From an uncultured Nitrospirales bacterium (lineage in GTDB: Bacteria > Hydrogenedentota > Hydrogenedentia > Hydrogenedentales > GCA-2746185), in NCBI GenBank assembly GCA_964467615.1, contig CAYXRK010000001.1:14008-78007 (forward strand): 64,000 nt of DNA. The letters run 5' to 3'. The position numbers and the translations under genes were made by a program. Numbering within the stretch: position 1 is the stretch's first letter; each line of letters starts with the position of its first letter. Of the stretch, positions 9,965 to 64,000 are shown in pieces. The notes beneath the pieces are model-generated. The model saw only the letters and a program-made list of their open reading frames with translations, had not been told where the DNA came from and ran no database searches.

Positions 9965-10147
9965 TAGCCCGCGTCGCGCACCAGTGTTCGTAGCGAGGAA
10001 GTGGAGATGGTTGGTATATCAGGACTTGTTCGGTTCGGATCGGACGACAGCGTGTAGAAACACGTCGAGTTCGATCCGAGACGAAAAGTTCCGAGAGAAC
10101 GGCCATATCCGCTTCCGCAGTAGAATGGTGGTGAGCGATGCGGGCTA
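9965..10147. mobile_element. 183-bp MITE-like palindromic element, copy 1 (about 25-bp terminal inverted repeats TAGCCCGC...)
   Basis: About 93% identical to the reverse complement of 57221..57403. The termini are inverted repeats of each other. The internal sequence is quasi-palindromic. Lies in the hemB / AMP-ligase intergenic region. Confidence 0.7.
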
Positions 10148-49375: not shown

Positions 49376-49464
49376 GCGTGACGCAGCGTATCATCGCGAA
49401 ACGGTGATCGGTTTCGGGCTGGGCTTGGCGGAAGTTTGGGTTTCGTCATATTCGATTTTTCCCA

Positions 49465-50484
49465 CTACGATTCTGCAACTGAATAATCAGGCAACTGCAA
49501 GCGCACCAAGTCAATTAGCGTTGCGTTTCCATGCGAATGATCCAGCGGCCTTAAAAGCAAAAAATCATCTGCCGTTACCACGAATTCATCTGCTGGCGTC
49601 TTTGTCATTCCGTTGAAATACGACATAAAGAAACTAAAAAATGATTGTCGTTTCCGCTTCGCAATTCTTTCTATGAATTCGGCATAGCGGATGATCGCTT
49701 CGTCCTTTACCTGAAATGTGTAATCCACGTAGGTTTCCAATACTGACAAGTCATGATCAGTCCAATGAACACCATTGCCTAGTAACGCGAAACTGCGAAA
49801 CGGACGTTTGCTCGCGCTGCCAGAAGACGCCAACAAATTTTCGTTGAATTGAAGATCAAAATCGACCGCGACTAATGACGTTTGCTTTGCTTTCTCAATT
49901 GTTTGAATTCCGCTTCCTAACTTATCTGAACTTGAAAATCGTTGCGCTCCAACACGCTTACTTTCTAGGGATGCAAGAGGAGAAGCACTGTTGAGAAGAG
50001 CAATGCGGCAATACTGCTCTTTGACGGCAATCAGTTTTACAAAAAGCGTACTAGCCTTGCCACCCCATACGACGATAACAGGGAACGCCTGTTCAACGGC
50101 GATGGTTTTTATCGTTTCACCTTCACCGGTCAAGACACCAATTCGCGCCTGCTGCATCAATGGATCGTGCCGTTTCAAAGTGATTTGAAGCGATGGATTG
50201 CCGATACGAAGGTTGTGACCCTTTTGGATATGGGCAACTAACAACGGAGCAAATAGGACGAACTCGACTTTATGAGTGGCTCCAGAACGTCCGCGAAGTT
50301 TCGGCTCATAGATGAGACAATCGCGAATTTTCAAATCAGTAAGTAAAAACTTCTTTATAATGATTTCCTGAACTACACCAATCTTGCGACCTACAGTTCG
50401 GCCGTTCTTTATATTGGTATGCGTCTCAAAATAATAGAAAATCTCCGAAATTCGAGGATCGTGAGGATCGCGTGGATTCGCCAC
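49465..50484 (-). CDS. putative Type II restriction endonuclease (partner of the adjacent MTase)
   Basis: Low-GC (about 43%) ORF immediately downstream of, and overlapping, the N6A MTase gene. Start taken at GTG with GGAG Shine-Dalgarno; the ORF extends to a TTG at 50565. No recognised family. Confidence 0.45.
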   Translation of the reverse strand: MANPRDPHDPRISEIFYYFETHTNIKNGRTVGRKIGVVQEIIIKKFLLTDLKIRDCLIYEPKLRGRSGATHKVEFVLFAPLLVAHIQKGHNLRIGNPSLQITLKRHDPLMQQARIGVLTGEGETIKTIAVEQAFPVIVVWGGKASTLFVKLIAVKEQYCRIALLNSASPLASLESKRVGAQRFSSSDKLGSGIQTIEKAKQTSLVAVDFDLQFNENLLASSGSASKRPFRSFALLGNGVHWTDHDLSVLETYVDYTFQVKDEAIIRYAEFIERIAKRKRQSFFSFFMSYFNGMTKTPADEFVVTADDFLLLRPLDHSHGNATLIDLVRLQLPDYSVAES

Positions 50485-50537
50485 TATTTTCTCCGGCGAA
50501 CGAATCTGACTATCAGTTCCTCTATGATGCTCATATA

Positions 50538-51164
50538 TTACGTTTGTTGCTGCGTCGGGCGCCAAACGGAACTGTGATCAAATAGAAGAGGTTGTTCTTG
50601 CTTCTTTGCCCGTTCGTACTTCGCCATACGTGCCGAACGTAAATCTATCGCAGCGCCGTATTTGGAAAAGACCTCTAAGAACTTCGCTACTTCTGGTCCC
50701 CAATAGACCATTGCACACGACATAGGGGCACCCTTGCCACCGGTCCTTCCGTTTACGAGAAATTTTAATCGGGTGTCGTACAAGAATGCGACCGCTGCAG
50801 TATTGTTCCAGATGAAACGCTTCCAGTGACTTGTATTCGTTGCGACGGGTACTAATGCGATGACTTCCGAATTATGTGTTTGATGACTTTCGGCGCAACG
50901 TCTCAACCAGTCGTAGATTGTCGTGCCTCTCGTCCGATCTGCTCCGTAAGGTGGATTGACGAATATCGTCGGGTAATCCCAACTCGCACTGAGGCCATCC
51001 GTCTTTGGTAAGTGGTACTCAATCGCGGCATCAACGACTGAGTATTTATTTGAGCAAGGGTCTAACGAAATTCTGCCTCCGAATACTTGGCGAACCGCTA
51101 CCACATACTCAAGCGGCGTCCCCCAGTGATGGCTTACTGCGTTGACCGTTCTTCCTGCTGTCAT
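50538..51164 (-). CDS. DNA N6-adenine methyltransferase (Dam-like, phage-type)
   Basis: DPCS (motif I-like) and TIFVNPPYG (motif IV NPPY) signatures. GGAGGGGAAA Shine-Dalgarno before the ATG (MTAGRTV). Low GC. Confidence 0.75.
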   Translation of the reverse strand: MTAGRTVNAVSHHWGTPLEYVVAVRQVFGGRISLDPCSNKYSVVDAAIEYHLPKTDGLSASWDYPTIFVNPPYGADRTRGTTIYDWLRRCAESHQTHNSEVIALVPVATNTSHWKRFIWNNTAAVAFLYDTRLKFLVNGRTGGKGAPMSCAMVYWGPEVAKFLEVFSKYGAAIDLRSARMAKYERAKKQEQPLLFDHSSVWRPTQQQT

Positions 51165-51519
51165 TTTCCCCTCCATGTTCCCAGAACGCGTGGGCTTTAA
51201 TACAGCAATGTTCACTTTGCCTCGTGGTACGCGAGCCGCTTCCGCGCGCTGCCTTTGATCGCTTCAACGGCATGCTTGCCGTCCGTCACTTCCCGCTGGT
51301 TCCACTGGAACCCATTGCCGAAGCGTGATATGCGATCCGTGCATGACCGTCCCTACGGCGACGGTGAACTACTTGCAGCATACATTACACTGAATAAGAC
51401 CGTCTCGCACCTTCAAGGACTTGACGATAATTCGCGTGCTTTTTGTGCCGTGGCAATGCGTCACGAAAACTCGAAGTCTCGCCGAGTTCGAAGACCCGGC
51501 CACGATTTCGATCTCGACT

Positions 51520-54339: not shown

Positions 54340-54436
54340 AGCTGATTTACTCTCCGGCGCAGGCCCTGTAAGATTGGCGGCGCGACCCGCGTAAGCCTTT
54401 CATGGGCACATCGACCGGCGCAACTCGGAATCGGCC

Positions 54437-55507
54437 TTGAGACCCTCGATTAGAACACTCCTCACCGGGTTCGCGTTTCTAGGCGGCACGATCGCGGTTT
54501 CGGTGCTCGGGTACATGCTGCTGGCCGAGGCGAGTTTTCTCGACGCGCTTTTTATGGTGATGATCACCGTGTTTAGCGTCGGGTATGAAGACGTGATTGG
54601 CCTCGACACGCCGGCCCTCAAGGTCTTTACGTTGTTTGTTATCGTCGCGGGATGCGGTTCGTTTGTCTACGCGGTAGGAGGATTTGCGCAAATGGTCATG
54701 GAAGGCGAGATCACGCGGGCGCTCGGCGCGCGCAGGCAGATTCGATCCATCGACGCTCTTCGGGACCACGCGATCGTTTGCGGGTATGGGCGCGTCGGGC
54801 AAATCTTGGCGGCGGAACTGTTGCAAGCGGACTATCCGTTCGTCGTCATCGACGATTCCGAAGAGCGCGCGCAGCAGGCGGGCGCGCGGGGGATACTGGC
54901 CATTACCGGCGACGCCACCGACGAGGGCGTGTTACAGTCCGCCCATATCGAGCGGGCGCGATCGCTGGCAACTGTCTTGCCCGACGACGCCTCGAATGTA
55001 TTCATCACCCTGAGCGCCCGGAACCTGAACCCGAAGCTTAGGATTTTCGCGCGGGGGGAACTGCCCTCGACCGAAGGTAAGCTTACGAAAGCGGGCGCAA
55101 ACCACGTTGTCCTCCCGGCGGCCATCGGCGCGCTGCGCTTGGCGCACATGATTGTGCGGCCTTCCGCTTCGCATCTCATCGACACGCTCGAGAACGCGAC
55201 CATGATCAACGACGACCTCGAATTGCTCGGCGTGCGGCTGAGCGAGATCGAGGTGCCCGCGGGATCTCCTCATGAGAACAAAACCGTCGGCGAACTCGAA
55301 ATTGCTGGCGAAGGCGCGTACCTAATCGTGGCGTTGCGGCGCAGGAACGGAGAAGTCATTCGCAGGCCCCTCGCCGGCGCGGTCGTCGAAGGCGGTGACA
55401 TTGTGATCGTCATCGGCCACGGAGAAGACGACCCGCGATTTGTGTTGGCGAAATCCGGGGCACGCTTGCTCGTCCCGAGCGATCCGCCGCGCGAAACGGC
55501 GGGCTGA
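54437..55507 (+). CDS. K+ channel-like protein with RCK (TrkA-N/TrkA-C) domains; non-canonical filter SVGYED
   Basis: Two TM helices flanking a pore loop (TVFSVGYEDV). Rossmann RCK domain (IVCGYGRVGQ). TrkA-C at the C-terminus. TTG start in the ORF track, so the start is uncertain. Confidence 0.6.
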   Translation: MRPSIRTLLTGFAFLGGTIAVSVLGYMLLAEASFLDALFMVMITVFSVGYEDVIGLDTPALKVFTLFVIVAGCGSFVYAVGGFAQMVMEGEITRALGARRQIRSIDALRDHAIVCGYGRVGQILAAELLQADYPFVVIDDSEERAQQAGARGILAITGDATDEGVLQSAHIERARSLATVLPDDASNVFITLSARNLNPKLRIFARGELPSTEGKLTKAGANHVVLPAAIGALRLAHMIVRPSASHLIDTLENATMINDDLELLGVRLSEIEVPAGSPHENKTVGELEIAGEGAYLIVALRRRNGEVIRRPLAGAVVEGGDIVIVIGHGEDDPRFVLAKSGARLLVPSDPPRETAG

Positions 55508-55513
55508 AACGCG

Positions 55514-56248: not shown

Positions 56249-56290
56249 TGCGGCTTCGGCGCCCGAGAATCGGGACACCCATTTTGCTCA

Positions 56291-56318
56291 TTGCTTTTTA
56301 ACTCGGTGCGAGTAAAAT
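56291..56318 (+). promoter_or_regulatory. sigma-70-like promoter candidate (TTGCTT-16-TAAAAT) upstream of the parA-like gene
   Basis: Hexamers and spacing read directly. Sits 33 nt upstream of the ATG. Confidence 0.35.
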
Positions 56319-56350
56319 AGGGCGGGGACCACGGGAGGGCGCTCAGACCG

Positions 56351-57223
56351 ATGTCCATCGTATTGATGCTCAACTTGAAGGGCGGCGTCGCGAAGACGAC
56401 CAATTGCGTCGCCGTCGCCGAGGCCATGGCGGACTCCGGTCACAAGGTCCTCGTTATCGACGCGGACCACCAATGCATGGCGAGCGAACTGCTTATCGGC
56501 GAGGAGAAGTTGCTCCGCTGCGAGGTGCGCAAGAAGACGCTGCACGACATGCTCGGCGCGATGATGGACGACGAGTTTACCGAAGCCAACATTCCGCCGT
56601 ACATCGTCGAGCAAGTATCGAACATCGGCGGAGGGTACCCGAACCTTCACTTGCTGCCGTGCTCGATTCGCATCGACGAATTCCAGACGAACATGGCCAA
56701 GGCCCGCCGGGGCTTCAATACGGTCGACGAATATCGCCAGGAATTGCAGCGAAAACGGGGCGTGTTGCAGCGGTTTTTGAAGAGCAACTACGATTCCGTA
56801 CTGATCGATTGCCCGCCGAGTTTGGCCATGCAAGTCGTGGAGTTTCTCCTCATCGGCGACGCGTTCATCATCCCTTCGGTGCCGGACCGTCTTTCCGTGC
56901 GCGGATCGATTTGGCTGCTCGAGCGACTGCGCCGCCGCAACATCTCGCGCATTCAGCCGCTTGGCACGCTGTGGTCCCTCTACCGCACCCAGGCCGCGAT
57001 TCACAATCACATCATCGATCAGGCCGAGAAGGGCATCGAACCGCTCGACATCCTCCCGCGGCCTTTCCGGACGATCATCCCCAATGCGGCGCGCATCGCC
57101 GAATCAACCGAACCCGATCGGCACCCGCATACCTTCTCGTCCAAGTACTCGCCGTTCTTCGCGCAACGCTATAAACACCTCGCGAGAGAAATCCGCACGC
57201 GCCTTACGCGCATGGGGGTCTAG
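56351..57223 (+). CDS. ParA/MinD-family ATPase (orphan ParA-like)
   Basis: Deviant Walker A KGGVAKTT. Walker B VLIDCPP. Confidence 0.8.
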   Translation: MSIVLMLNLKGGVAKTTNCVAVAEAMADSGHKVLVIDADHQCMASELLIGEEKLLRCEVRKKTLHDMLGAMMDDEFTEANIPPYIVEQVSNIGGGYPNLHLLPCSIRIDEFQTNMAKARRGFNTVDEYRQELQRKRGVLQRFLKSNYDSVLIDCPPSLAMQVVEFLLIGDAFIIPSVPDRLSVRGSIWLLERLRRRNISRIQPLGTLWSLYRTQAAIHNHIIDQAEKGIEPLDILPRPFRTIIPNAARIAESTEPDRHPHTFSSKYSPFFAQRYKHLAREIRTRLTRMGV

Positions 57224-57403
57224 CCCGCATACCTCACCACCATTCTACCGCGGAAGCGGATATGGCCGTTCTCTCGAAACTTTTCGCCTCGGATCGAACT
57301 CGACGTGTATCTACATGCTGTCGTCCGATCCGAACCGAAGAAGTTCCGATATACCAACCATCTCCACTTCCTCGCTACGAATGCTGGTGAGATATGCGGG
57401 CTA
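57221..57403. mobile_element. 183-bp MITE-like palindromic element, copy 2 (inverted relative to copy 1); uses the parA TAG as its first three bases
   Basis: Reverse complement is about 93% identical to 9965..10147. Terminal inverted repeats TAGCCCGCATA(C/T)CTCACCA. Confidence 0.7.
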
Positions 57404-57464
57404 GCGCCGCGCGTGAATGCAGGGGCGCGAATGTCTTGCATCGGCCAGTAACGGGGATCCGGAT

Positions 57465-58928
57465 ATGGAGGCGAAGAAGGTGATGTCAGCGCGAGTTGGA
57501 ATTCTCACCGCGACGGTTGTTGCAGTCGCGTTGGCGGGTTGCTCGGGGCCGGCGGAAAAGACAACTCAAGCGCTCGTAGCCGCAGGCGCCGAAGCAAATT
57601 TTCTGCTCCCGCCCGGTTCCCCGCCTCACGTCGTGTTCATTAGCCTGGATACGGCGCGGCCCGACTATCTCGGACTCTACGGCCACCCATGGGTCAAGAC
57701 GCCCAATCTTGACGAACTCGCGGCGGAGTCTGTCGTTTTCGAGGACGCAATGACCCCAGCGCCGACGACGCTGGCCGCGCATACGGCGATGATGACGAGC
57801 ACCTATCCTCACACGCACGGCGTGCCGCGAAACGGCTTCGTTGTTAGCGACGAAAACGTGACGCTCGCCGAAATCTTGAGGGCCGCCGGATACAGCACCG
57901 CGGCAATCGTTGGCGCGTTTCCGCTGTTACACCGTTTCGAGCTGGACCAGGGATTCGATCTCTACGACGACAAGTCCGCTCATGGCGACTTTTGGCAGCG
58001 GACCGCCGAAGAGGTGACCGATGCCACGCTGCGTTATGTTGCGCAGCGTGGACCAGGTGGACCGCTGTTCCTCTTCGTGCACTATTTCGACGCGCACGCA
58101 CCCTACTCCCCTGGCAAAGTGTGGTTTAATCCATACCGCGAACAGCCCGTGGAAGACCCTGGTCATCCCATCACTCCCGATTGGATGGAGGTCATGACCG
58201 GTAAGAAATCCATGGGCGCGCGCAAATACCTGGTGCAGCGCTACGCCGCCGAGATTACCTACCTCGATCACCACCTGGGACGATTGCTCGAAGGCCTCCG
58301 CCAAGCCGGGATCGTGGACAACGCGATCATTATCGTAACCAGCGATCACGGCGAGTCGCTGTGGGACAACGGGCCGTGGTTCGATCACGGGCAGAACACG
58401 GTCCAATCGGTCATCCACGCGGTCGGCATCCTTCGGCTTCCCGGCGCCCGGCACGGAGGCACGCGCGTCGGTGTGCCGGTTTCGACATTGGATTGGATGC
58501 CGACGGTGTTGGCCTATGCGGGAATCACCGCGCCGCCGGGTATCGATGGCCGCGCGATCGATCTCAACGGCGACGCGCCTCGCGTCGGGCCCCGCGACTT
58601 ATTCTGCGAGGCGACGAAACCCTTCACGGTCGAGCGCGAGGGGGAATGGTACAACGCGCAAAAGGAGCGGTGCATTCGTTCGGAGAACTACAAGTTCGTT
58701 TACTCACCGTATGCAAACACGCGGGCCCTGTTTAACGTCGCTGATGATCCTTACGATCACAAGAACTTGCTCGACGCGCCGACTCCGGAGATCGAAAAGC
58801 TCGCCGCCGAGTTGGAGGCAAAGCTCGCGGCATGGCACGCGAGCGCCGCGCCGAAGTCCAGCGCGTTCGACCAGGAGAACGAACAAGAAACCCGCGATCA
58901 ACTCGAGGCGCTCGGCTACGTGAATTGA
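57465..58928 (+). CDS. sulfatase-like (alkaline phosphatase superfamily) lipoprotein lacking the C/S-x-P-x-R FGly motif
   Basis: Lipobox VALAGC. Sulfatase-family N-domain (VVFISLDTARPDYLG), but TPAPTT occupies the position of CxPSR. Confidence 0.65.
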   Translation: MEAKKVMSARVGILTATVVAVALAGCSGPAEKTTQALVAAGAEANFLLPPGSPPHVVFISLDTARPDYLGLYGHPWVKTPNLDELAAESVVFEDAMTPAPTTLAAHTAMMTSTYPHTHGVPRNGFVVSDENVTLAEILRAAGYSTAAIVGAFPLLHRFELDQGFDLYDDKSAHGDFWQRTAEEVTDATLRYVAQRGPGGPLFLFVHYFDAHAPYSPGKVWFNPYREQPVEDPGHPITPDWMEVMTGKKSMGARKYLVQRYAAEITYLDHHLGRLLEGLRQAGIVDNAIIIVTSDHGESLWDNGPWFDHGQNTVQSVIHAVGILRLPGARHGGTRVGVPVSTLDWMPTVLAYAGITAPPGIDGRAIDLNGDAPRVGPRDLFCEATKPFTVEREGEWYNAQKERCIRSENYKFVYSPYANTRALFNVADDPYDHKNLLDAPTPEIEKLAAELEAKLAAWHASAAPKSSAFDQENEQETRDQLEALGYVN

Positions 58929-59003
58929 CGGCGCACTACGAGGTGCGATGAGATTGTGTCCTTGCGGGAGATTCGCACGCGGCTCACGCGCATGGGCGTG
59001 TGA
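58929..59003 (+). pseudogene. duplicated 3' end of the parA-like gene (encodes ...SLREIRTRLTRMGV*), in frame directly after the sulfatase-like stop
   Basis: The 12 C-terminal codons are identical in protein to the ParA-like C-terminus (REIRTRLTRMGV). About 80% nucleotide identity, with synonymous differences. No start codon. Confidence 0.5.
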
Positions 59004-59014
59004 CTCTGCACTCC

Positions 59015-59197
59015 CTAGATAATCCCGCGAGAGAGAACGAACATTACCATCGCGAAGAGGACGGCCAATAGGATCAGGCGTTTACGTTTACGTCGGCGTT
59101 CCCTTGCCGAGTCGAAAGCGTCTCCGGAAAAGAAAGTTGTCCAGAAAATTATTATCAGAGCAAACGGCGCAAAAAGTAGTAGCAGGTAGAAGAGCAT
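59015..59197 (-). CDS. small membrane protein (60 aa, 2 TM), hypothetical
   Basis: Hydrophobic ORF downstream of maf on the same strand. AT-richer. No Shine-Dalgarno verified. Confidence 0.3.
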   Translation of the reverse strand: MLFYLLLLFAPFALIIIFWTTFFSGDAFDSARERRRKRKRLILLAVLFAMVMFVLSRGII

Positions 59198-59247
59198 GAG
59201 GATCGAAATCTCGTTGCGTTTGGAATACGCCCTATTGCTCTATCGGT

Positions 59248-59859
59248 TCAAAGGAACCGTGCCCGCTCCGGCTCAATGTAATCGAATAAATCGTGCCCAA
59301 TCGTCCTGACTAGCGCATTCAACCTAACCATCGGCAGGCCGAGCACGTTTTGGTAGCAGCCGTTGTAGCGCGCGACAAGAAGGCTGCCGGGGCCGTCGAC
59401 GGTGTAGGCGCCGGCGCGATCTACGGGATTGACGGCGTTGACGAAGCAGTCGATCTCGGCCTCGGTCAACGCGCAGAACGTGACCTCGGTCGTCTCGTGA
59501 TCCGCCGCCGATTTCCCAGAATCGGTGTCGATGACCGCGACCCCCGTGATGACGCGGTGCGTTGCGCCCGAAAGCTGCCGGAGCATGGCGCGGGCGTCTT
59601 CGAGATCGCGCGGTTTGCCGAGGACGCAATCGCCGATCACCACGACGGTGTCCGCCGCGATGATGAGGGCGGGCGAATCGAGGGTCTTGGCGACGCCGTC
59701 GCGCTTGGCGACAGCGTTGCGCGTCGCGGCCTCAGCGGGATCGCCGCCGAGCGTTTCGTCCGCCGCGCTCGGGCGGACTTCGATGCGCATGCCGAGGGCC
59801 TCGAGCAACGCGCGGCGGCGGGGCGAGGCCGACGCGAGAACGATCGGGAGGCGGCCCAC
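59248..59859 (-). CDS. maf: Maf-like nucleoside triphosphate pyrophosphatase (septum formation protein Maf)
   Basis: LASASPRRRALL N-terminal motif and overall Maf-family alignment. Confidence 0.85.
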   Translation of the reverse strand: MGRLPIVLASASPRRRALLEALGMRIEVRPSAADETLGGDPAEAATRNAVAKRDGVAKTLDSPALIIAADTVVVIGDCVLGKPRDLEDARAMLRQLSGATHRVITGVAVIDTDSGKSAADHETTEVTFCALTEAEIDCFVNAVNPVDRAGAYTVDGPGSLLVARYNGCYQNVLGLPMVRLNALVRTIGHDLFDYIEPERARFL

Positions 59860-63140: not shown

Positions 63141-64000
63141 TTAGCTCCGCTTGCGCGCTCGCCGTTTCTTAGGTTCCTCCGAAACGGCCAACGGTGTGGT
63201 CAATTGCTCATACAGCCGAAACAGGAATTCGATGCGCTCACGTTCGCTGTCGAATTTTTCTTTTCGGTAACAGCGATCCACAGCACGATCCAGCGCCCGA
63301 TGCGCTTTCAACAGGTCCCCCGGCATGTAAAGCGGATCGTAGAGATCCGCTAATGTCTGGCCACCGTCCAAATGCTTTTGGCGCACGTCCAACAGTGCCT
63401 GGGCGCACTCCTCGACCTTTGCACGCCGCGCATCGGTCACGTCGACCGGCCAAGGGAAGTTGTTGTAGACCAGTTTGGCCGAATACCGAAGATCAGACTT
63501 TATCCGGCCGCACACTTGGCGGACCCACGCCATGTGCATCGCACTCGTGAGAATGCCGAAGTGAAAAGGGGTAGCGTTCGGAATAAAAAGACAACTATCG
63601 TGAACAATACTTTCGGGACCGAAATATGAGAATGGTATGTACACGCGCCTCTCGGAGCTATGGCGGGGCAAAACGATGAAGTTCGAATCAGGTTGCCTTA
63701 TTTCCGCAAATTGAAATGGGCGCTCGGCCAATCGCTTTGTCGCCGCGCGATTACTTCGGAGGCGATACTCCCGTACGGCTTCGATACGTTCCTTCACGCC
63801 AGGAAGATTTCGATACTGTTGAATGGGGACGTCCTTAAGCCAAATGCACCATCGTTCGGCGCCGCTGAAGTATTCTTTGGCGCTAACCAGCGGACGCAGA
63901 AAAGCCGCGGCCCTCGGCGCGCGAGACAACAGTTCTCTCTTCTCATCCGCGTCGAGTATCAGTTGCCCATCGTCGTTCGGCATACTGCCGAAATTCATCG
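63141..64000 (-). CDS. C-terminal portion of an MmeI/PglX-like class I SAM-dependent N6-adenine DNA methyltransferase (type IIL R-M or BREX-type); N-terminal part lies beyond the window edge
   Basis: YNNFPWP and LYDPLYMPGDLLKAHRALDRAVDRCYR...RIEFLFRLYEQL motifs resemble the conserved C-terminus of MmeI-family / PglX enzymes. The ORF is open to the window end. Lower GC. Confidence 0.5.
   Translation of the reverse strand, partial: MNFGSMPNDDGQLILDADEKRELLSRAPRAAAFLRPLVSAKEYFSGAERWCIWLKDVPIQQYRNLPGVKERIEAVREYRLRSNRAATKRLAERPFQFAEIRQPDSNFIVLPRHSSERRVYIPFSYFGPESIVHDSCLFIPNATPFHFGILTSAMHMAWVRQVCGRIKSDLRYSAKLVYNNFPWPVDVTDARRAKVEECAQALLDVRQKHLDGGQTLADLYDPLYMPGDLLKAHRALDRAVDRCYRKEKFDSERERIEFLFRLYEQLTTPLAVSEEPKKRRARKRS

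Follow-up and report, generated by a model that had tools for sequence, protein, structure and literature searches.

Orphaned 3′ ends of genes, left behind by homology-facilitated illegitimate recombination, have been proposed for the C-terminal displacement of Rhs and contact-dependent inhibition (CDI) genes and for the effector-immunity modules of the Vibrio cholerae type VI secretion system (T6SS) (PMC5361080); where that paper deals with such displacement, it cites Jackson et al. 2009 and de Vries & Wackernagel 2002. A duplicated gene end is also described at icd in Escherichia coli K-12, the site of prophage e14, where icd is accompanied by the C-terminal pseudogene icdC (PMC13626634, in a statement that cites Hill et al. 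1989). Here we describe a locus in which the last 12 codons of a ParA-like gene (parA) occur a second time, downstream of a sulfatase-fold lipoprotein gene. It lies in a 64,000-nucleotide stretch of DNA (the window) from a metagenome-assembled genome (MAG) of Candidatus Hydrogenedentota from Hainich groundwater. We think it probable that the second copy is a relic stranded by recombination between chromosomes of one genus-level group that differed downstream of parA, and that a miniature inverted-repeat transposable element (MITE) inserted at the parA stop codon independently and later. The features concerned are these:

56351 to 57223, forward strand: ParA/MinD-like ATPase gene (parA), 290 amino acids, deviant Walker A motif KGGVAKT, an orphan.
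57185 to 57223, forward strand: resident parA tail, 12 codons (REIRTRLTRMGV) followed by TAG.
57223 to 57401, no strand assigned: MITE, 179 bp, a near-perfect hairpin, with a TA duplication at 57221-57222 and 57402-57403.
57465 to 58928, forward strand: sulfatase-fold lipoprotein gene, 487 amino acids (503 from an alternative upstream start at 57417), Pfam PF00884 at 1.5e-39.
58929 to 59247, no strand assigned: spacer of 319 bp, with the stop codons of the convergent sulfatase and maf genes on either side; when the window is aligned with the relatives, the gap runs from 58930 to 59251.
58965 to 59003, forward strand: second parA tail, the putative relic, 12 codons (REIRTRLTRMGV) followed by TGA.
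59248 to 59859, reverse strand: maf gene, Pfam Maf at 3.3e-55.

Like the Rhs/CDI and T6SS scars, this locus has a conserved upstream gene that would have served as homologous anchor while the other end was joined illegitimately, and a short, diverged copy of a 3′ end that is stranded downstream, is polymorphic among close relatives and comes without an integrase. Unlike in those systems, the gene is a housekeeping-type ParA-like ATPase and not a polymorphic toxin; unlike in their arrays, there is one relic of 12 (perhaps 20) codons, with no orphan immunity-like gene after it. The anchor, moreover, may have been either parA or maf. The e14/icd pair is alike in having two direct copies of a C-terminal end that differ mostly by silent changes, one on the gene body and the other on a stranded pseudogene fragment. 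However, e14 is a 15-kb element that carries an integrase, has a defined att core and excises, whereas the interval here is 1.7 kb long and holds only the MITE and the sulfatase-fold gene, the latter retained by relatives without the distal copy. Most likely, the locus is a new instance of an already known kind of recombination scar, an ordinary scar in a genome, and it opens no long-standing question.

The evidence starts with the two tails themselves. Their peptides are identical (12/12 residues), and the second copy lies 36 nt (12 codons) downstream of the sulfatase stop codon (58926-58928) with no stop codon in between, so that it is in frame with the sulfatase-fold gene. A first-pass annotation of this DNA had reported the repeat and its frame correctly, and its figure of about 80% nucleotide identity was fair: 29 of 39 positions agree with the stop codon included, 28 of 36 in the sense codons, and 27 of 32 (84%) in the ungapped core of the comparison (57188-57219 against 58968-58999). 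Each of the eight sense-codon differences is synonymous, and the stop codons differ (TAG versus TGA). The longest identical runs measure 11 nt (ACGCGCATGGG) and 8 nt. In a six-frame translation of the window the peptide motif occurs at these two sites only, and a degenerate 29-mer allowing up to three mismatches found exactly the two tails, with no match in 100 dinucleotide-preserving shuffles. When eight tail positions were substituted at random, the peptide was kept in none of 200,000 simulated trials. Silent-only divergence is thus not compatible with neutral drift, and indicates that both tails diverged under purifying selection, each of them ending a working parA. On this evidence the relic belonged to a working parA allele until recently, and the simulations agree with the annotation's view that the second copy had been under coding selection. 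Selection on the antisense frame of the tail was considered and rejected, as the antisense peptide is conserved less than the sense peptide.

Close relatives of the window numbered only two in all the collections that we searched: L023, a Logan assembly, and L026, an assembly from the European Nucleotide Archive (ENA). Pairwise nucleotide identity among the three lineages is about 85-92%. In the window the local gene order is cls, TrkA-type channel, TauE, parA, MITE, sulfatase-fold lipoprotein, 319-bp spacer, maf, lolA and proC, with maf, lolA and proC on the strand opposite to parA and the sulfatase-fold gene. This whole arrangement is present at 99.9-100% identity in three replicate contigs (L001, L062 and L063) from independent assemblies of one groundwater well; coverage in the source assemblies was low (3-4x). 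L023 and L026 share the order TauE-parA-sulfatase-maf, with the sulfatase-fold gene in the same position (88% and 86% protein identity, respectively), but have no MITE, no spacer and no second tail. Among all searched genomes, a second tail copy occurs in the window only. The orthologous parA tails read REVRTRLTRMGV-TGA in L023 and REVRTRLTRLGM-TAG in L026.

These comparisons bear on the proposal, made from the window alone, that a cassette bracketed by the duplication had displaced the original parA end. The bracketed cassette did not survive, as parA, sulfatase and maf stand together in both relatives without a distal copy. What stood was the separation of a tail from its parA body by recombination; displacement in the strict sense survives as one of two polarities discussed below. 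The annotation had also asked whether relatives have parA followed directly by maf, and the answer was negative in every retrievable genome. A conserved independent small open reading frame (ORF) ending in the tail peptide, which it had raised as the alternative, was not seen.

In both relatives the sulfatase TGA abuts the complement of the maf stop codon (TGA/CTA). The junction is identical in L023 and L026 (TGACTATAGG) despite flanks that are only 78-83% identical to each other, which indicates that the abutting state is old. With the sulfatase-fold gene present in both relatives and the distal copy missing, the polymorphic unit is the 319-bp spacer, not the sulfatase-fold gene. The GC content of the spacer (0.52 overall, 0.48-0.52 in the part other than the relic) falls inside the native intergenic range (0.44-0.65). 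It had no match in Rfam or in phage, plasmid or viral-contig collections, and no convincing promoter or terminator signals were found in the spacer or the tail. Beyond the relic stop codon, the sequence bears no relation to what lies between parA and the sulfatase in any lineage, which argues that the source parA had a downstream neighbour other than the sulfatase. To us the spacer looks like DNA that lies downstream of parA where parA and maf converge without a sulfatase between them.

A further boundary appears inside maf. In its 3′-terminal 84 nt or so (59252-59335), 15 of 30 differences are unique to the window, compared with 21 of 99 in the rest of the gene (Fisher p = 0.0045), an indication of a recombination breakpoint near 59335. 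With 58929 as the boundary on the left, this excess marks out a distinct patch. On the other side, the window and L026 show 2 differences in the last 98 nt of the sulfatase-fold gene, up to the junction, and L023 and L026 share 97.6% identity in lolA. Mosaicism is plain to see in all three lineages, so that recombination is evidently frequent here. Apart from this, the spacer has at its right edge a 16-nt palindrome (CGGTTC-AAAG-GAACCG, 59244-59259) that extends across the maf stop codon. The relatives have the right arm of the palindrome only; it could be an inverted duplication from the formation of the junction.

The silent-site difference (pS) of the relic is 0.79 from the resident tail of the window, 0.58 from that of L023 and 0.38 from that of L026 (8, 6 and 4 of about 10 silent sites, respectively), compared with 0.29-0.40 over the whole of parA between lineages, and it has individual codon states in common with the tails of each of the three lineages. 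Thus, it looks like the tail of a parA allele of a fourth lineage, at or slightly beyond the divergence of the other three, and is now most likely the non-functional 3′ end of that different, diverged allele. It might reach upstream to 58944 (CDEIVSL), since C-[DE]-E-I-V typifies the C-terminus in the ParA family at large. In frame, the stretch of 36 nt that separates the relic from the sulfatase stop (58929-58964) translates to RRTTRCDEIVSL, and 14 nt of it are identical to the parA 3′ end of another locus, L028. A profile of the family C-terminus placed these 36 nt at E = 3.3 (rank 7 of 1912), which is not significant. The CDEIV resemblance and the 14-nt match are only suggestive of a parA origin for 58929-58964; the relic could combine two fragments of parA ends, or could come from an allele with an insertion of 6-7 codons.

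Based on these observations, we propose a model in which two types of chromosome met. In the first, parA, the sulfatase-fold gene and maf would follow one another with abutting stop codons, as in both sampled relatives. In the second, which we infer and which is unsampled, parA would be followed directly by the spacer and a convergent maf; the junction sequence ATGGGCGTGTGACTCTGCACTCCCTAGATAATCCC would be diagnostic of this type if preceded by a full-length parA. One crossover would have taken place by homology, whereas the other join would have been illegitimate, at the sulfatase stop codon, as in homology-facilitated illegitimate recombination. In the polarity that we prefer, a patch of about 400 bp comprising the relic, the spacer and the last 84 nt or so of maf (58930 to about 59335) would have entered a parA-sulfatase-maf chromosome, and maf would have been the site of the homologous crossover. 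We prefer it because of the window-specific excess in the last 84 nt of maf, because both outer flanks resemble the common gene pool, and because one patch explains everything. It is possible instead that a parA-spacer-maf chromosome took up a fragment with the parA 3′ end and the sulfatase-fold gene, which displaced its native tail. This would yield the same structure, but would need further exchanges. The existence of the parA-spacer-maf chromosome, the recombination mechanism and its direction are all inferred from the sequences compared here. As the relic shows no decay, the event appears to have been recent and within the lineage of the window, rather than an old insertion common to the three lineages.

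Much of what such a scar should leave behind is found at this locus: a diverged, once-functional 3′ end of the anchor gene stranded downstream, presence/absence polymorphism among close relatives and one boundary in homologous sequence. The partner arrangement was not identified in data that hold three lineages of the group. Several points weigh against our model. Scans with ParA of 185,579 species genomes and of Joint Genome Institute (JGI) metagenomes produced full-length matches of no more than 60% identity and revealed no synteny, and the postulated parA-spacer-maf genome was not found in any of our genome, metagenome and protein-collection searches. More distant ParA homologues (up to 67% identity; in Planctomycetota, Nitrospirota and other Hydrogenedentota) have unrelated neighbourhoods, as the contexts of the best of them (P0002, P0003, P0004, P0005 and P0023) showed. 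Sulfatase and Maf protein searches returned the same three lineages, plus Maf outgroups of lower identity. One of these, a Maf of 76% identity (P0248, ENA ERZ27301951), lies on a 982-nt contig with no gene called in the 126 nt downstream of maf; in the outgroups of 66% identity maf is followed by an unrelated gene. Further, under either polarity the illegitimate join has to fall just one base beyond the sulfatase stop codon, which would be a coincidence of a few percent, and 14-36 nt between that stop and the relic are explained by neither. Finally, the comparison has three star-like, mosaic lineages and no usable outgroup, and the choice between gain and loss of the spacer rests mainly on the absence of decay in 12 codons.

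If the spacer was lost rather than gained, the duplication would be old: a replacement parA tail and the sulfatase would have been inserted near the end of parA in the ancestor of the three lineages, pushing the original tail downstream, and the relatives would later have deleted relic and spacer. This is the most natural one-step route to the arrangement and does not depend on any coincidence at the sulfatase stop. The spacer resembles ordinary native intergenic DNA, no gene was called beyond maf on the only outgroup-like contig, and near the junction L023 resembles L026 more than either resembles the window, which would allow for a single deletion shared by the two. However, with a pS of 0.22-0.42 between the lineages, 36 nt should by now hold several non-synonymous or nonsense changes, and the relic has none; the rough probability of no decay is a few percent or less (about 0.02 or less). 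The old abutting junction in the relatives pushes the required age of the relic back even further, and a single deletion of exactly the whole spacer that left both reading frames intact is improbable. We therefore regard an ancient cassette as unlikely. A site-specific element that integrated at the 3′ end of parA, with the tails as attL and attR, the sulfatase as cargo and an integrase that has since been lost, would likewise give direct repeats of a gene end with identical peptide and silent differences, as icd and icdC do around e14. The 11-nt identical run is long enough for a recombinase core; together with the 8-nt run it is compatible with an att core, but is equally expected from identical codons. 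Against such an element, 57224-58964 holds no integrase or mobile-element gene, only the 179-bp MITE and the sulfatase-fold ORF. The relatives keep the supposed cargo without the distal repeat, and there is no empty site that lacks the whole interval. The degenerate tail pattern had no match in 2.9 million viral contigs, nor did the spacer in phage and plasmid collections. This explanation is very improbable. As to an integron gene cassette, which would call for an IntI integrase nearby, no integrase is evident among the called genes within 8 kb on either side.

It is also conceivable that the second copy still functions, either as a mini-ORF (for example GTG-TCC-TTG..., 15 amino acids) or as a read-through extension of the sulfatase, and is kept for its peptide. 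The 24 open codons in frame with the sulfatase stop and a peptide that is perfectly conserved despite eight silent differences would fit this. However, neither relative has the copy, and in both of them the same TGA terminates the sulfatase; the frame would match by chance in one case out of three, and at 60% GC a run of 24 open codons is nothing unusual. The search for a promoter-like signal was negative, and the tail of a cytoplasmic ParA has no obvious role on an exported lipoprotein. We consider continued function hardly credible. As to chance similarity or a chimera of metagenome assembly, low coverage in the source assemblies is what could have produced the latter. Against this stand the empty shuffles, the two unique sites in six frames, the agreement of three independent replicate assemblies, and a longest exact match between the copies that at 11 nt is too short to mislead a k-mer assembler. 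Both are effectively refuted.

The locus shows that uncultured groundwater populations of Hydrogenedentota exchange DNA often enough for mosaicism on a scale of about 100 bp. Recombination between chromosomes that differ in what follows parA, the explanation that we favour, also implies an unsampled lineage in which other genes lie downstream of parA. When a short gene end is duplicated with silent-only differences, this is a reliable marker of recombination between diverged alleles, but taken alone it is no evidence for a mobile cassette; the value of the locus is mostly that of a caution and a small case study. A bolder reading is that in Hydrogenedentota the end of parA serves repeatedly as an anchor for recombination, and that the modules downstream of it are exchanged with no integrase involved. 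This would be analogous to the C-terminal displacement known from toxin loci, although the gene is a housekeeping-type ATPase. The relic would then be a compound, a CDEIV-type fragment plus the REIRTR...MGV tail, left by two successive displacements. We regard this as quite improbable.

The MITE at the parA stop codon, which the first-pass annotation had recognized, is real. Its ends were set by aligning the two copies in the window, the other being:

9967 to 10145, reverse strand: second MITE copy, 91% identical, also between TA/TAG flanks.

The element has terminal inverted repeats of about 20-26 nt, folds into a hairpin of -44 kcal/mol (z = -8.3) and has no coding capacity. The pre-insertion site was GTC-TAG-CGC, i.e. 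the MITE inserted in the CTAG that holds the parA stop codon, which was re-formed from the duplicated TA and the first G of the element. L026 has the unoccupied site (..ATG TAG CGCGG..), and L023 is likewise without the element. Inverted repeats, a short non-coding body, a target duplication, multiple copies and an empty site in relatives together identify the sequence as a MITE. It resembles the TA-duplicating MITEs of the IS630/Tc1-mariner type in its TA flanks, inverted repeats, hairpin and short non-coding body; no parent transposase was identified in a search confined to the window, and its tentative placement in this type is based on the target duplication, which might also be a 3-bp TAG instead of TA. 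IS630 prefers CTAG targets. The element had been thought to be associated with the event that duplicated the tail. However, it has a TA duplication of its own, and both MITE-less relatives already have parA adjacent to the sulfatase-fold gene. We propose that it arrived by a separate, later TA-targeted transposition into the parA stop codon; judged from these sequences, it is unconnected with the arrival of the sulfatase or of the second tail, and their adjacency is coincidental.

The sulfatase-fold gene was described beforehand as encoding a lipoprotein without the catalytic C-x-P-x-R motif, and this was borne out: the lipobox LAGC is present and T-L-A-A-H occupies the motif position. Thus, despite its sulfatase domain the protein does not have the C/S-x-P-x-R of formylglycine-dependent sulfatases. 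As 92 of 119 homologues have T-(L/V)-x-x-H at this position, with T-L-A-S-H the commonest form, it belongs to a large, conserved Thr-type subfamily and is not a degenerate sulfatase. The motif suggests that Thr acts as the nucleophile, as it does in phosphodiesterases and phosphotransferases that share this fold. Its ratio of non-synonymous to silent differences (pN/pS) is about 0.2-0.33, compared with about 0.03 for parA, which indicates relaxed constraint.

The ParA-like protein matches Pfam AAA_31 (1.4e-27) and CbiA (7.9e-12) and has the deviant Walker A motif (KGGxxK[ST]) as NLKGGVAKTT at residues 8-17. Walker A motif and family domain together mark it as a ParA/MinD-type P-loop ATPase. 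It scores 61 bits against NCBIfam ParA_partition, where the cutoff is 180, and is thus not an equivalog of the partition ParA; no parB adjoins the gene. Constraint is strong, with a dN/dS of about 0.03 at a pS of 0.29-0.40 among the three lineages. The tail REIRTRLTRMGV (57185-57220) has hydrophobic residues at positions 3, 7, 10 and 12 with arginines in between. This spacing is that of an amphipathic helix like the membrane-targeting tail of MinD, which could explain purifying selection on it. Related ParA homologues with short tails terminate in ...RVHTMGL and ...RVHALGL. Upstream, the TauE-parA intergenic region (56249-56350) is 94% identical between L023 and L026 but 79-80% identical between them and the window, whereas the flanking genes are at 90-93%; it is another local mosaic patch. 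In a different Hydrogenedentota MAG (L019, 10001-11833), a parA homologue with 81% identity over 58 residues directly follows a type I restriction gene, HsdR; it is cut off at codon 59, and transposase-like ORFs follow.

Within the spacer, a gene for a small membrane protein had been proposed:

59015 to 59197, reverse strand: 60-codon ORF, probably no gene.

An exhaustive HMMER search of 1.84 billion representative proteins and the scan of viral contigs yielded no homologue. Its GC content at third codon positions (GC3) is 0.57, compared with 0.73-0.84 in the neighbouring genes, and it was left uncalled in every source assembly. The proposed gene is thus probably not one.

The window differs from L023 in other places as well. 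A TrkA-N/ion-channel gene (54437-55507, in an indel region at 54405-55513) separates cls from TauE in the window, whereas L023 lacks it and has an unrelated spacer of about 100 nt instead; this presence/absence difference lies less than 3 kb from the parA tail. A low-GC island (0.42-0.50) at 49400-51471, also absent from L023, contains a Dam-type methylase gene and a 339-amino acid ORF without a Pfam match, and is probably acquired DNA. No duplicated gene ends were found at these two other window-specific indels, i.e. at the TrkA gene and at the borders of the Dam island. At the end of the window (about 63141-64000; L001 14077-15309) lies an MmeI-type restriction-modification gene with MmeI_Mtase, TRD and C domains. 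This gene and the Dam island suggest a region rich in defence or acquired genes.

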